Shown: positions 29,444 to 35,064 of the stretch, piece after piece | Layout: each line of letters opens with the position of its first letter | Position numbering within the stretch: position 1 is the first letter of the stretch | Source: Gammaproteobacteria bacterium | Lineage (GTDB): Bacteria > Pseudomonadota > Gammaproteobacteria > GCA-001735895 | Direction of reading: 5' to 3' | Length of the DNA: 64,000 nucleotides | Assembly: GCA_050298595.1 (NCBI GenBank) | Contig: JBNKUM010000115.1 | Coordinates: forward strand, 1-64,000 | Position numbers and translations under genes: made by a program | The notes under the pieces: model-generated | Told to the model about the DNA's origin: nothing | The model's input: the letters and a program-made list of their open reading frames with translations, nothing else | Database searches by the model: none

Positions 29444-30307
29444 ATGAGCGAATCTCCCTATATTCATCACGTTACAGCACAGGACTTTAATACGCTGGTC
29501 GTAGAAAACTCATTCAAACAACCCGTACTGGTCGATTTCTGGGCAGAATGGTGTCAACCCTGTCAGGCACTGATTCCCGTACTCACCAAACTGGCAGAAG
29601 AATATAAAGGCGCATTCATCCTCGCCAAGGTAAATAGCGACGAACAGGGCGAACTGGCTGCACATGCCGGAGTAAGAAGCCTGCCTACTGTGAAACTGTT
29701 TATCGATGGACAAATCGCTGATGAATTCATGGGCGCCCTGCCCGAATCTGAGGTACGCAAGTTCCTGGACAAATATATCCAGTCAGAATCCGATGCCATT
29801 ATGAGTGAAGCCGTTCAGGCCTACCATGAAGGCCGCAAACAGGATGCACTGGACATGATGAACAAGGCACTGGCAGAAGATCCACAGAATGCCAAGCTAA
29901 AAATCAATATCGCCAAGATGGTCGCCAATGATGGTGATTATGAAAGTGCCAGTGCATTGATCGATACACTAAGTGATGAAGATAAAGATCAAGCTGAAGT
30001 ACGCGAGATGATGGCGCAGATTAAGCTCGCGGTGAAGCTTAAGGATGCGGGTGATCCTGCTGAAATTGAACAGCGTCTGAATGATAACCCAGAAGATCTG
30101 GATGCGATGTTACAGATGAGTAATTATCTGACTGCTGCTGGTCAGTTCGAAGAGGCGATTAAGTTATTACTCGACATCATGACGAAGGATAGAAATTTTA
30201 ATGATGATGCGGGGCGTAAGGGCTTGTTGGAGGTTTTTGATATTTTAGGATCGGAGAATCCGCTGGTTAAGACCTATCGTCGCCGCATGTTTACGCTATT
30301 GCATTAG
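29444..30307 (+). CDS. cnoX: Thioredoxin-TPR chaperedoxin (YbbN/CnoX)
   Basis: DFWAEWCQPC thioredoxin domain plus a TPR C-terminus ending YRRRMFTLLH. Confidence 0.92.
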   Translation: MSESPYIHHVTAQDFNTLVVENSFKQPVLVDFWAEWCQPCQALIPVLTKLAEEYKGAFILAKVNSDEQGELAAHAGVRSLPTVKLFIDGQIADEFMGALPESEVRKFLDKYIQSESDAIMSEAVQAYHEGRKQDALDMMNKALAEDPQNAKLKINIAKMVANDGDYESASALIDTLSDEDKDQAEVREMMAQIKLAVKLKDAGDPAEIEQRLNDNPEDLDAMLQMSNYLTAAGQFEEAIKLLLDIMTKDRNFNDDAGRKGLLEVFDILGSENPLVKTYRRRMFTLLH

Positions 30308-30324
30308 TCTTTACCTGTTATTAC

Positions 30325-30540
30325 TTCGGGCTCCATGCCCTCCGTCAGGAGGCCTGCCAGGCTGTTCAAAATCGTTTCTTGCGGTTTTGTGCAAGGCTCG
30401 TAGCAACGAAGTATGAGTGCTATATGGAAGTAGTGTTCTTCGTTCGGCCTTGTACTTGCAACACCTAAACTCCTTTAAGCGTCGACTCTACCATCCTGTA
30501 TTCCCTGCACTTTCACTATTCCAGGCGGTCATGCCATGCC
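30325..30540. repeat. Degenerate REP-like hairpin cluster
   Basis: TTCGGGCTCCATGCCCTCC...GTTCAAAATCGTTTCTTGCGGTTTTGTG parallels 49181-49250; the minus strand carries CAGGATGGTAGAG, similar to the 55345 insertion. Confidence 0.55.
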
Positions 30541-30834
30541 TAAAAAAAAACCAAAAATTCCTTGTAAATATCACAAGGACCTACTCTTTTAATTCTTTGC
30601 CAAATCAAATACATCGCCCCTTTCACCCCTAATTTTTCAACCTGAACTTCTAACAAAGGCAAAAATCCACAATTTTTTTCTGGAAAAATATTTTTTTGAT
30701 CTACACTCAGTTTCGTATCAAAAAAAATATCCAGTCGAGATCAAAAAAATCAACACCGGGAAACTGGAAAGCTGAATCTACTAATACGAAAGACATGCAA
30801 TTCTAATGATTAATAATTTAATAAGGATTTATTT

Positions 30835-31245
30835 ATGAAATTAAAACTCTCCCTCTTTTTTATTACCCTTTTGCTCAACACATCACTATGGGCTGCAGAT
30901 GAATCTCCACTAACCGTAAACGGTGCAACCACAGTTAATGCTACCGAAGCCAAGGCTTTATTTGACAGTCAGGCCTTATTTGTTGATGTTAGAAAAGACT
31001 CTGACTGGGATGCGGGCCGGATTCCTGGTGCGGTTCATCTTGACAATAAAAAAGGTATTTTTACCGATGCCGCTCTAAGTAATGAAATCTCAAAAGATGA
31101 AAAAGTAGTCATTTACTGTAACGGAGCCTCATGCCCTCGCAGTTCCAAAGGTAGCGCATCAGCAGTCAGCTGGGGCTTCAAGAATGTATATTATTTCAGA
31201 GATGGTTTTCCCTCCTGGAAAGCAGCAGGGTACCCTGTCGAATAA
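30835..31245 (+). CDS. Exported single-domain rhodanese-like protein
   Basis: Signal peptide; FVDVR, GRIPGAVH, active-site loop YCNGASCPRS, GFPSWKAAGYP. Confidence 0.9.
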   Translation: MKLKLSLFFITLLLNTSLWAADESPLTVNGATTVNATEAKALFDSQALFVDVRKDSDWDAGRIPGAVHLDNKKGIFTDAALSNEISKDEKVVIYCNGASCPRSSKGSASAVSWGFKNVYYFRDGFPSWKAAGYPVE

Positions 31246-31276
31246 GTGCATTAACCCGTAGTAAGAAGGGAATTCC

Positions 31277-33145
31277 ATGTCATTCAAAGTACGTTTAATC
31301 AGTTTTATCTCTATAGCCATCGCCCTGGTGATGGCTGTTTTTTTTACAATTACTTATTTCTCTCTAGACATTGCACAGCAGCGTTTCGGGGAGGAGGCGA
31401 TCAGAGGCAAGAGTGTACTTTGGCAAAAGGTTATACAGGTCGAACTCGACCAGATGGAGGCATCTACCAGTAGCCTGACCCGCTCCAGAGATGCATTGAA
31501 AGCGTTGAACAAGATTGAGATGACAGCACTGTCGGATGCCACGCTACCGACTTATAATCGCCTGAGTGCTTCCCATGTTATAACTCGCCTGCAAATAGCC
31601 AATACTTCTGGACAGGTAGTTTTCTCGGCTCCAGAGACTTTTTCGGGTTCCTCCTCCAAAAACCTTATCGGTAAAGCATTGGCAGAAAAGAAAATATTTA
31701 AAGGCGTTGAACGTGATGACGATGGTCTGATTGTAGCTGAAATATCCTTCCCATTATATTTTCGTGGGAAGCTGGTAGGTGTAGGTATTTATATGGTCGA
31801 CCTGGCGACAGCGATGGAAAAGTTCAAACAGGCCGATGGCTCAGATTTCCATCTGTTTTCAGATAGCAAAAATCTGGAATACAGCTCAAACCCCGATCAG
31901 TTTAATCTGATTAGTGAGTATGTCGACTTTTCCAGCCAGTCCAGGCAGTTCAAGTATGACAACCATGGATTACTTATGAGTCTCGTACAGTTTCCTTTAT
32001 CCGATGAAAGTGGTAATCATATTGCTAATCTTGCCTCTGCGACCGATTATACTGAGAGTTATCTTCGCCAGTCCCGAGTCTATACGACGGGTATCATTGC
32101 AGGATTGGTTGCATTTGCGGTCGGCATCCTACTCATTTACTACTTTATTCAACACTCGTTCAAACCTATGAACAGAATCCTGACGGTGATTGAAAATATC
32201 GCTGTCGGTAATCTAACGGATGAAGTGATAGTAAAATCCAACGATGAATTTGGTCGTGTCATGAAAGGCTTACAGGATATGCAAAGCAAACTTAAAGGTA
32301 TGATCGACGATATCAACCTGGCAAGTCAGCAGATAGACTCATCGGCCGAACATCTGGAAACCGTTACCAATGAATCGAGTAAGCGGGTGAATACTCAAAG
32401 CCAGATTACCGACCAACTGGTGAATGATATTGATCAGTTAATCAACGCCTCTAATAATGTCACCCAGGCAGCAACTGAAGCCAATAGTGAAACCAGTGGT
32501 GCCGTTAACGAAGTCAGTAATGGTCGCAATATCATTACCGATGGAGTGAAAGCAATACAGAATATCTCTGATCAGGTACATCGAGCAGAAGAAGTGGTGA
32601 AAAGTGTACAGAATGAAACACAGAATATTGGCTCAGTGCTGGATGTCATCAAGGGTATTGCCGAACAGACCAACCTGCTGGCGTTGAATGCTGCTATAGA
32701 AGCAGCGCGCGCTGGTGAACAGGGGCGTGGATTTTCTGTAGTGGCGGATGAGGTTAGAACCCTCGCCAGCCGGACCTCACAGTCCACTCAGGAGATTGAA
32801 GCTATGATAGAAAGCCTGCAGGCAGGGTCTGCAGATGCAGTAGAAAAAATGCAGGGCAGTATCAAAATGGTTGAAAAGGGTGTGGAAATAGTCAATCTTG
32901 CCGATCAATCCTTTGACACTATCGCCCAGTCGATGACCTCTATCAGCGCAAAGAACGAAAGTATATCTAGCGCTTCAGAAAACCAGATGTCTATATCACG
33001 TACCATGCATGATAATGTCCAGACTATATCTTCTGCTACCAATTCAACATTGGAAGGCAATCAAATAACTGTGACCTCCACCGAAGAATTAATAGCGCTG
33101 GCAGAAAAACTGAAGCAGAAGGTTAAACAGTTTACTACCTCCTGA
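31277..33145 (+). CDS. Methyl-accepting chemotaxis protein with a large periplasmic (Cache-like) sensor domain
   Basis: Two TM segments, [38 protein letters not shown]. Confidence 0.95.
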
Positions 33146-33252: not shown

Positions 33253-35064
33253 TTAAAAAGAAGAAAGCGTACTAGCAATTTCTTTCATATTGCTTGCACG
33301 CATTCCATATCGAAATTCGTATTTTTTATAAATTACTTCAATAATACTTGTGAGAAAATATTCATCTCCTTTATTGAATTCACCCTGCCCTAAGGTTTTT
33401 CTAATATCAGCCAACTCTCTTGAAAAAAAATATAATTGGGCGTTGTGTAAAGATTCAAGAGAGTCGAGAACATCTTCAGCTGATTCCGCATCTATTAAAA
33501 ACGAGTAGTCAGTTATATTGCTAAATAGCTTATTGATTTCATTAGGTGTTGCTTTTAATTTTTCCCAGAACCTCTTGCGTAGCTTACGGTCACAATCTTT
33601 TACATAGCTGCTGTTTAGATTTAATGTCAGTTTAAATAACGCATTACTTTTTGGATACCTTCCAACATGTAAGTTCAGATAGTCTAAATCCATGACATCC
33701 ATTTTCTTATCTGAATATAATCTATAAATTACAGATTTAATCTTACTTTCTACCTCATCTGAATCCAGCTCTATCACTCCCTTTTCAATATCATTTAATA
33801 TCCTCTCCGCTAAAAGCAACAGGGTTGCTGGATTAGTTATCGCTTCTTCATCTAACATTTTTCTAATTATTTTGTTTAGTAACTCTATAGCCTCTTCTTC
33901 ATCAAGCTGATGAAAATTGAAAGTATCAAGATAATGCTCATAAAACTTTTCATCTACCCAGGTATTAAAGTTATCCTCAAAATCTCTGTCTATATAGAAC
34001 CCGTTTTCTATAATACTAAAGATACCTTTTAACGAAATTTCATCTAACCTATAGAATATCGTATCCAGAAGTAGCTTTGATTTCTCTGTTAAATACACAG
34101 GTGAGTTCTTATCGAAATAACCAATTTTATTCAGCAAACTAAATCCATTGCTTTCCCGATAATCTCCAGAAATTAATACGGACCTTTCTTTTTCATGGAC
34201 AAAATGTTTTTTCAGTAATATCAATGCCGATAGCAGGGTTAAAAAATAGGTGAATGATAATCTTATAGAAACTTGAAATTCTTTTTCATGATGGCAATAA
34301 ATATACTCATAAAGCTGTATTGCTTCAGAAATTGTCCGTATGTTTTTTTCGCTTACTTTATTTAAAAAATTAAGCAGTGGATCAATATTTCTATACAGCA
34401 AAGTATTTATAAATTTTTTGGAATCTTTATTTTTATAGTCTATTAGCCCCATGGCTATTTCAATTCTGGAAACGCTTGTATTTTCAAATTTATAAATATG
34501 CCTTATCGTTTTCTCTCTTGCCTTTACCAGGTTCTGTATTCCATCCTCATTCAAGGCATTCAGATTCCCTAAAATAATGCATTTTATATTTTCATGTTCT
34601 ACCAGTTTATTGATATAGGATAAACAGACATTTAAATCGCCTACCCATCTTTCCAGGTCGTCAATGCACAAAACAATTTTGAACAACTGCTTATCAAAAT
34701 CTCTATATTTCTTTAGAATGAACTGTACAGCATAACCAACCCCTCCCAACCTGGCTCCCTTCAACAAATCACCGCTAAAATAATCCCCATCTGAAAAGTA
34801 ACTATTTTTTGTATTCGTGCTTATTAAGAAACTTTTATAAATCTCATTCTCGATATCAGATATTGTGCTTAATCCGAAAAGTGATATATGAAAATAATCT
34901 ATGGTTTCGATACCAGGCAAAATAACATTATTGATTAAATAGGTCTTACCCACACCCCAATCGCCATCTAGAACAATGGCATGCTGTGAATAATTCTGCT
35001 TTAAATACAGATCAATAGCCTGGCTTAACTGCTCTTTAGTCAGCATATAAGTTTTCTCCTCCAA
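33253..35064 (-). CDS. KAP-family P-loop NTPase
   Basis: Walker A GDWGVGKT, ISLFG, Walker B LCIDDLER, REKTI; visibly AT-rich. Confidence 0.85.
   Translation of the reverse strand: MEEKTYMLTKEQLSQAIDLYLKQNYSQHAIVLDGDWGVGKTYLINNVILPGIETIDYFHISLFGLSTISDIENEIYKSFLISTNTKNSYFSDGDYFSGDLLKGARLGGVGYAVQFILKKYRDFDKQLFKIVLCIDDLERWVGDLNVCLSYINKLVEHENIKCIILGNLNALNEDGIQNLVKAREKTIRHIYKFENTSVSRIEIAMGLIDYKNKDSKKFINTLLYRNIDPLLNFLNKVSEKNIRTISEAIQLYEYIYCHHEKEFQVSIRLSFTYFLTLLSALILLKKHFVHEKERSVLISGDYRESNGFSLLNKIGYFDKNSPVYLTEKSKLLLDTIFYRLDEISLKGIFSIIENGFYIDRDFEDNFNTWVDEKFYEHYLDTFNFHQLDEEEAIELLNKIIRKMLDEEAITNPATLLLLAERILNDIEKGVIELDSDEVESKIKSVIYRLYSDKKMDVMDLDYLNLHVGRYPKSNALFKLTLNLNSSYVKDCDRKLRKRFWEKLKATPNEINKLFSNITDYSFLIDAESAEDVLDSLESLHNAQLYFFSRELADIRKTLGQGEFNKGDEYFLTSIIEVIYKKYEFRYGMRASNMKEIASTLSSF

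Follow-up and report, generated by a model that had tools for sequence, protein, structure and literature searches.

A predicted exported rhodanese paired with a dCache chemoreceptor: a candidate two-part sensor for reactive sulfur or redox state in Proteobacteria

Why should a gene for an apparently exported rhodanese stand directly in front of a gene for a methyl-accepting chemotaxis protein (MCP)? This question is raised by positions 30,835 to 33,145 of a 64,000-nucleotide stretch of DNA, referred to here as the window, from a Gammaproteobacteria bacterium (assembly GCA_050298595.1, contig JBNKUM010000115.1, positions 1 to 64,000 of the forward strand). The first gene (30835..31245, + strand, ATG start) encodes a single-domain rhodanese of 136 amino acids, the candidate co-sensor. 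It is separated by a 31-base spacer (31246..31276, +), carrying a GAAGGG ribosome-binding site at 31265-31270, from an MCP gene of 622 codons (31277..33145, +, ATG start). The comparative analysis described below indicates that the rhodanese is probably an undescribed extracytoplasmic sensor part, with reactive sulfur or redox state as its most likely signal. It is very probable that the two proteins work together and, if they do, it is reasonably likely that the rhodanese is the input element and is read by contact. The complete model, in which the rhodanese perceives a reactive sulfur or redox signal and the MCP reads the rhodanese by contact, is tentative, with a little less than an even chance of holding in all its parts.

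The pairing itself is conserved, and many of the bacteria that have it are marine. One genome per species was scanned with an alignment of the rhodanese, which yielded 172 related stretches, and the best 80 of these 172, chosen by the rhodanese alone and belonging to Gamma- and Alphaproteobacteria, were analysed. A homologue of the MCP sensor lies directly downstream of the rhodanese in 76 of the 80 loci: tblastn with residues 1-290 of the window MCP finds a match directly after the rhodanese in 72, and a sensor-domain profile adds L068, L079, L089 and L099. The gap between the two genes is 14-80 bases in most of the other 72 loci tabulated, with a minority of longer gaps reaching about 365. 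Within the genus of the window's organism, nine of 14 genomes (its own included) have a rhodanese orthologue of 56-100% identity with the MCP sensor directly behind it, while the other five, whose completeness is 74-98%, contain paralogues of at most 42% identity only. When the neighbouring genes at the 80 loci are clustered, nothing recurs except the MCP (73 loci) and the rhodanese; no third recurrent gene (sox, psr, dsb or che) was found beside the pair, so the module consists of exactly two genes.

The nature of the downstream partner is informative as well. Pfam analysis of the downstream open reading frames (ORFs), carried out for 69 of the 73 loci outside the genus, assigned an MCPsignal domain to 59, whereas six were cut by contig ends or truncated, three were unrelated and one, at L092, was a hybrid histidine kinase of 1046 amino acids bearing the same sensor. 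The link thus persists across MCPs of 603-802 amino acids and across a kinase, and it tracks the sensor domain, not the output type. Two linked loci appear to be damaged, one by a stop after 152 amino acids (L044) and the other by an interrupted frame (L062). The earlier note on this DNA had proposed a survey for conserved pairs of such a rhodanese with an MCP or a kinase, and both kinds of partner were found. A rhodanese-linked MCP from a metagenome-assembled genome (MAG) of the Methyloligellaceae carries in addition a C-terminal PilZ domain (L076:4423-6606).

At the same loci, two rhodaneses are on average 62% identical and two sensors 28.5%. The distance matrices of the two proteins correlate (Mantel r 0.42, with none of 999 permutations reaching as high a value), a correlation that reflects co-inheritance, not contact.

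Another line of evidence comes from protein fusions. The same rhodanese subfamily forms the C-terminal, periplasmic domain of 56 longer proteins, in which it is 35-64% identical to the window rhodanese (43-64% if a single protein is set aside, over about 83% of its length). The fusion partners are a class III cyclase in 24 proteins, a Trans_reg_C domain (ToxR/OmpR-type DNA-binding) in four, a BTAD domain in four and TPR repeats only in 23, many of these last being contig fragments; one protein shows the rhodanese only. According to Pfam analysis of eight proteins and the reading of four sequences, the order is an N-terminal output domain, a hydrophobic membrane segment, a TolB-like and TPR region and the C-terminal rhodanese. 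Among the 50 fused proteins in which the preceding strand was found, 45 have the CxGxxC loop of the rhodanese, described below. Since the fusions have no dCache domain, the rhodanese is their likeliest input. They are regarded as the strongest argument that the free-standing rhodanese is an input element too and not an enzyme sharing an operon by chance.

A different arrangement is seen at L073:4001-8412, where the gene downstream of a rhodanese orthologue encodes a phosphonate-type periplasmic binding protein and the one after it a 922-amino-acid PAS-PAS-GGDEF-EAL protein, with no MCP. This locus, which lies on the same contig as L131 (genome G157), is possibly a c-di-GMP version of the module. 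A broader proposal, more speculative than the model of the MCP pair, is that of a "sensor rhodanese", a periplasmic input module that would capture sulfane sulfur or sulfide covalently on its cysteine pair. Its outputs may be of five or more types, namely the chemoreceptor, the hybrid histidine kinase, the class III cyclase, the ToxR-like or BTAD regulator and, possibly, the GGDEF-EAL protein.

These data bear directly on the simplest alternative, according to which a periplasmic rhodanese for detoxification or sulfur handling merely shares a promoter with an unrelated chemoreceptor. Adjacency alone is no proof of interaction, and the presence of a 38-42% identical paralogue beside ccoP in three relatives suggests metabolic or protective roles. 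However, the adjacency recurs in 76 of 80 loci from two proteobacterial classes whose neighbouring genes are otherwise unrelated, the partner always has the same sensor family whatever its output type, and the subfamily has been fused independently to signalling proteins. The absence of any signalling link is thus considered very improbable, and the rhodanese is treated in what follows as part of a sensor.

The window rhodanese matches Pfam PF00581 with 65.9 bits (cut-off 22.2) over residues 36-131, and similar-length homologues at E<=1e-5 number 631. In its AlphaFold2 (AF2) model, with a predicted local distance difference test score (pLDDT) of 91.6, C95 directly follows the central strand 90-94 (VVIYC95). 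A Foldseek search with this model finds 6mxv (E 4e-9, TM 0.65), 3tp9, BH2092 (3nhv), GlpE (1gmx) and Sud (1qxn). The active-site loop, C95-N-G-A-S-C100-P-R102-S103 (31117..31143, +), was delimited by alignment of the paired sequences and by hidden Markov model (HMM) alignments; its two cysteines are encoded by tgt at 31117-31119 (C95) and tgc at 31132-31134 (C100). C95, N96, G97, C100, R102, S103 and 16 other positions are invariant in all 69 paired rhodaneses, of which 58 have exactly two cysteines after residue 20 and 11 have three.

The loop is enlarged. In the HMM alignments, 6mxv, 2hhg and 3tp9 all show a two-residue gap opposite it, so the loop is two residues longer than theirs and is not of the canonical short GlpE/PspE type. 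The active-site loop has six residues in rhodaneses that transfer sulfur and seven in those of the phosphatase or arsenate-reductase types. No NCBIfam model reaches its cut-off for the window rhodanese: the GlpE model gives 38.8 bits (cut-off 102), and the best matches, far below their cut-offs, are the rhodanese-related selenoproteins TsoB (56.4 bits) and rhodanese_LYCAU (53.4 bits). At the other end of the protein, P-x-E-stop is found in 78 of the 80 rhodaneses, the exceptions being L095 and L100, both also without a sensor gene, while the fused forms carry extra residues beyond P-x-E. This ending deserves little weight, since G-x-P-x-E is a common rhodanese C-terminus.

The N-terminus of the rhodanese, MKLKLSLFFITLLLNTSLWA/ADE, has lysine residues, a hydrophobic core and then LWA-A, as in a Sec signal peptide. 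This signal-peptide-like segment (residues 1-20, ending ...LWA/AD; 30835..30894, +) has a pLDDT of about 60, against 92-99 for the rest of the protein, and in homologues the region varies in sequence while its hydrophobicity is kept. The rhodanese would accordingly be a periplasmic protein. The description in the earlier note, an isolated two-gene unit in which a signal-peptide rhodanese with a two-cysteine loop lies 31 bp upstream of an MCP with a periplasmic sensor domain, is upheld by the ORFs, the Pfam matches, the reading of the loop and of the Sec-like N-terminus, a 527-base gap upstream of the unit and a convergent gene downstream.

In three relatives of the same genus (L010:1486-2992, L011:1-1860 and L012:1450-3031; genomes G003, G007 and G005), the paralogous rhodanese mentioned above adjoins ccoP/FixP, the gene for cbb3 oxidase subunit III. 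The paralogue at L011 gives a rhodanese Pfam match and has the loop CNGAHC. Its position beside the oxidase gene suggests that this type of loop has a second role, linked to the oxidase.

It could also be argued that the rhodanese senses nothing and is a structural helper, a subunit needed for the folding, stability or clustering of the receptor, with its cysteines forming a structural disulfide. Exported proteins often contain cysteine pairs that are no more than a disulfide, and the strong conservation of the rhodanese relative to the sensor would suit a fixed scaffold. Yet the cysteines are located in the catalytic loop and not in a typical stabilising position. A terminal periplasmic position on unrelated output proteins would be expected of an input domain more than of a chaperone specific to one receptor, and close homologues of the sensor dispense with the rhodanese. 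A purely structural role is therefore improbable, and an input function for the rhodanese is preferred.

How could the receptor read such an input? The MCP contains a dCache_3 match (32.5 bits, cut-off 25.7, residues 49-202), a HAMP domain (PF00672, 31.3 bits, cut-off 25, residues 295-340; 32159..32296, +) and an MCP signalling domain (MCPsignal, PF00015, 152.1 bits, cut-off 34.6, residues 432-586; 32570..33034, +). The AF2 model of its first 290 residues (pLDDT 91.4, predicted template-modelling score 0.81) begins and ends with a long helix and has two alpha/beta modules in between. The long helices, 3-62 and 259-289, flank about 237 periplasmic residues, and the model suggests a topology of two membrane helices around a periplasmic ligand-binding domain. 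The sensor domain proper, delimited by AF2 and Foldseek, covers residues about 30-266 (31364..32074, +). Its Foldseek neighbours are the dCache domains of Tlp3 (6w3o, E 1.3e-10), PctA, TlpA, Mlp24, DctB and vpHK1S-Z8, with E values of 1e-10 to 1e-8, which include binders of amino acids, urate and dicarboxylates; a sequence search of the PDB with the sensor gave nothing at E<=1.

The periplasmic part of the window MCP is free of cysteine, and the same is true of 66 of 69 homologues. A thiol relay, in which sulfur or a disulfide would be handed over from the rhodanese to the receptor, is thereby excluded, and contact or a diffusible product remain as the means of communication.

On this basis, it is proposed that the two genes encode a two-part chemoreceptor whose periplasmic rhodanese would be the signal-perceiving part. 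The trigger would be a reactive sulfur species (sulfide, polysulfide, thiosulfate) or, with lower probability, some other redox-active or thiophilic molecule, and under its action the cysteine pair in the enlarged loop (C95-x-G-x-x-C100) would switch between a dithiol, a disulfide and a bridge of the persulfide or polysulfide type. The cysteine-free dCache domain would read the state of the rhodanese by protein-protein contact, and the signal would run from the dCache domain through HAMP to the CheA-controlling tip. The cell could in this way steer along sulfur or redox gradients, for instance to the oxic-sulfidic interface. We infer that the rhodanese is exported and touches the receptor, and likewise infer its cysteine chemistry, the nature of the signal and the resulting behaviour. 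If the rhodanese is indeed an input read by contact, the signal is probably a sulfur species; general redox state is a less likely signal, and another thiophilic compound is a rather unlikely one.

The genomic context supports sulfur in part. The window's own genome (98.6% complete) encodes SoxB (858 bits), DsrA (622 bits) with a DsrB-like gene beside it and RuBisCO, and is thus equipped as that of a sulfur-oxidising autotroph. In a sample of 400 genomes, SoxB exceeds its cut-off in 10 of the 13 that carry the module (G420 being counted as module-bearing because its coordinates are identical with those of L094), compared with 135 of the 387 others; the one-sided Fisher p of 0.003 is indicative only, as kin are not independent. 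Many of the 80 loci come from taxa with the names of sulfur oxidisers (Sedimenticola, Thiodiazotropha, Chromatiales, Ectothiorhodospiraceae, Thiotrichales, Acidiferrobacterales), and others from taxa with the names of heterotrophs (Kiloniella, Shimia, Roseibium, Colwellia, Spongiibacteraceae).

The reach of the sensor domain beyond the pair was assessed by running its profile over the same sample of 400 genomes of the class. Matches were found in 28 genomes and fell into strong (E<=1e-39) and weak (E>=1e-25) ones, with a clear gap between them; 20 of the 25 strong matches outside the window's own genome were analysed. The rhodanese is directly upstream in 11 of these 20. A quick maximum-likelihood tree built from 84 sensor domains places the unlinked sensors among the linked ones; the backbone is poorly resolved, and two changes of linkage are needed, though a single one is compatible with the poor resolution.

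Several observations weigh against the proposed model. Nine of the 20 strong sensor homologues have no rhodanese within 1.5 kb: seven are MCPs of 685-815 amino acids and two are histidine kinases, one of them with a response-regulator gene directly behind it. Among five genomes with unlinked sensors that were searched for a rhodanese orthologue, four have none (best E 2e-24 to 1e-11), whereas in the fifth, G157, it is found elsewhere, at the L073 locus. The existence of unlinked homologues in rhodanese-free genomes indicates that the dCache family can signal alone, and these sensors presumably bind a small ligand themselves. In the other direction, four of the 80 rhodanese loci have no sensor: L072, whose following gene has the opposite orientation, L073, and L095 and L100, both from one MAG. 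Nearly every rhodanese of the subfamily has such a sensor, while the converse is false, and this is the main result against an obligatory partnership. With regard to the chemistry, the loop is longer than in proven sulfurtransferases, so sulfur transfer is not assured, and the loop cysteines have been lost in five fusions (P0171 and P0173-P0176). No fusion of the rhodanese to an MCP or a kinase was found among the 56 longer proteins. SoxB is absent from three of the 13 module genomes (G275, G354 and G420) and, among five heterotroph-labelled hosts, is present in Shimia only; those without it are Kiloniella litopenaei and MAGs of Spongiibacteraceae, Moraxellaceae and Colwellia.

The suggestion of the earlier note that the rhodanese serves as a binding protein read by the MCP is consequently favoured in its sensory aspect by the surveys, and is weakened by the unlinked sensors, the SoxB-free hosts and the lack of a rhodanese-MCP fusion. 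Two further points of the survey that it proposed came out positive in part: the subfamily is fused to transmembrane signalling proteins, although to no MCP or kinase, and the module is enriched in genomes with SoxB, although four of the five heterotroph-labelled hosts lack this gene.

Four of the unlinked MCPs, of about 690-706 amino acids, directly adjoin mutS (L111, L114, L116 and L129, in genomes G157, G258, G405 and G119, respectively), so their placement is conserved.

The unlinked sensors lend some weight to a second type of explanation, in which the rhodanese is a ligand-processing enzyme. A catalytic periplasmic rhodanese would make or remove a small molecule bound by the dCache pocket, for example by converting thiosulfate or polysulfide into sulfite, sulfide or thiocyanate. 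The two proteins would not associate stably, and the operon would merely ensure the joint production of enzyme and receptor. dCache domains usually bind small ligands directly, as do the structural neighbours of this one; nine of 20 close sensor homologues manage without a rhodanese; and the rhodanese keeps a catalytic-type cysteine and the conserved arginine and serine after the loop. The sensor, for its part, has conserved basic residues (R69, R71, K139, R163 and K165) that could hold an anion. Four sensor positions, R71, N94, R163 and K165, are kept at 75-88% in linked sensors and are variable in the nine unlinked ones, a pattern that fits either reading. What this explanation accounts for with difficulty is the fusion of the rhodanese subfamily to cyclases and ToxR-like regulators without a dCache domain, and a freely diffusing periplasmic product would report an outside gradient poorly. 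Ligand processing is thus regarded as fairly unlikely, and direct reading of the rhodanese by the receptor is retained as the preferred mechanism.

The SoxB-free hosts bear on a further alternative, in which the rhodanese is a sensor for a thiophilic signal other than sulfur. Its cysteine pair would bind arsenite, selenite or selenide, or a soft metal ion or, in a variant, the enlarged loop would bind an oxyanion as in rhodanese folds of the arsenate-reductase or phosphatase type; the output would be taxis towards or away from the compound. The loop is longer than in sulfurtransferases, the best NCBIfam matches, albeit below their cut-offs, are rhodanese-related selenoproteins, and the module is present in hosts devoid of SoxB. 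Nevertheless, the neighbours that recur at the 80 loci include no ars, selenium or metal-resistance gene, the module is enriched in SoxB genomes, and the window's own genome is equipped for sulfur oxidation. There is accordingly a slim prospect for such a signal, and reactive sulfur or redox state is kept as the favoured one.

Comparison with known systems helps to place the proposal. In LuxP-LuxQ (the Vibrio autoinducer-2 receptor) and in the maltose-binding protein with Tar (MBP-Tar), detection falls to a soluble periplasmic partner, which is in turn read by a membrane receptor, the sensor of LuxQ being a tandem PAS/dCache-like domain. The window pair resembles these systems in the adjacency of the partner and receptor genes, with a partner whose export is predicted from its sequence. 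It differs in that the partner has a rhodanese fold instead of that of a solute-binding protein and would probably capture its signal by cysteine chemistry instead of reversible binding.

Other rhodaneses offer closer relatives of the fold. Sud of Wolinella succinogenes is a periplasmic polysulfide-sulfur transferase with one catalytic cysteine, which carries polysulfide sulfur to a partner protein. The window rhodanese is likewise a single-domain rhodanese, predicted to be exported, with a related fold (1qxn, Foldseek E 2.3e-5), but Sud serves polysulfide reductase, whereas the window rhodanese adjoins a receptor. No polysulfide reductase gene recurs beside the pair in the 80 loci, psr not having been searched in the rest of the genomes. 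GlpE, PspE and YgaP of E. coli (1gmx, 5hbo and others), of which PspE is also periplasmic, share the fold and the cysteine at the catalytic position. Their loop is the canonical shorter one with a single cysteine, in contrast to the two-residue insertion and the second invariant cysteine at +5 of the window family. BH2092 of Bacillus halodurans (3nhv, 3o3w) has both the fold and the CxGxxC type of loop (YCWGPACNG...), but it is only 21% identical and is a structural-genomics rhodanese without an assigned function, so it explains nothing yet.

Cysteine-pair switches operated by sulfane sulfur are represented by CstR, SqrR and BigR, cytoplasmic DNA-binding repressors in which the pair is bridged or modified. 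The chemistry proposed for the window rhodanese is the same. These repressors differ in having other folds and a cytoplasmic location, whereas the switch proposed here would act in the periplasm on a rhodanese fold, with chemotaxis, a cyclase or a ToxR-like regulator as its output.

Sulfur-oxidising and other sediment bacteria are known from their behaviour to find sulfide, polysulfide or the oxic-sulfidic interface. Full-text searches of the open literature (subscription-only papers lay outside the scope) found no description of a rhodanese-chemoreceptor pair or of a sensory periplasmic rhodanese, no paper with both "rhodanese" and "dCache", and no dedicated receptor for sulfide, polysulfide or the oxic-sulfidic interface. 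This agrees with the earlier note, whose author knew of no characterised receptor of this design. In the portions consulted, a review of binding-protein-dependent signalling (PMC8050422) does not contain the word "rhodanese", and a preprint on Achromatium names no sulfide receptor. The rhodanese-MCP pair would therefore appear to be new within partner-protein-dependent chemoreception, its mechanism being a proposal.

The pair provides a concrete and testable candidate receptor, with related stretches numbering 172 across species-representative genomes. Indirect sensing through a partner protein would be extended by it beyond solute-binding proteins, to an enzyme fold with reactive cysteines. 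The cyclases and ToxR-like regulators to which the rhodanese is fused in parallel suggest that a periplasmic sensor domain of general use has been overlooked. If the "sensor rhodanese" proposal is true, the MCP pair would be the first molecularly defined chemoreceptor for reduced sulfur and the first receptor with an enzyme-fold co-receptor working by covalent chemistry. Both proteins are small, soluble-domain targets suited to binding, mass-spectrometry and chimera assays.

The surroundings of the two genes in the window add some details. The rhodanese is preceded by an intergenic stretch of 527 bases, and the GC content is 35% between 30500 and 30999. About 125 bases before the rhodanese start, the motif TATTTTTTTGATCTACACTC (30689..30708, +) is a candidate promoter or regulator site; its core is invariant in all five aligned loci of the same genus. 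A genome-wide search with the 15-base TATTTTTTTGATCTACACTC core found its own locus and one site with one mismatch, a count equal to that of the reversed-pattern control. Promoter and terminator scans at the locus gave counts not above those of shuffled sequences, with no terminator-like site inside the 31-base spacer. A terminator-like hairpin at 31313-31338 lies within the MCP coding region and was rejected as probably due to chance. Rfam detected no riboswitch in 30250-31300, the sole match being a chance one to a miRNA model (E 0.27).

Upstream of the intergenic stretch, 527 bases before the rhodanese, the gene at 29444-30307 (+) encodes a protein of 287 amino acids in which a thioredoxin domain is fused to TPR repeats. 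It was considered as a member of the module and discarded, because it is not a conserved neighbour at the other loci. Downstream, the convergent gene at 33253-35064 on the opposite strand (-) encodes a 603-amino-acid P-loop NTPase of the KAP family. The stretch that holds it has a GC content of 29-35%, against 42-48% in most of the surroundings, and is possibly acquired DNA.

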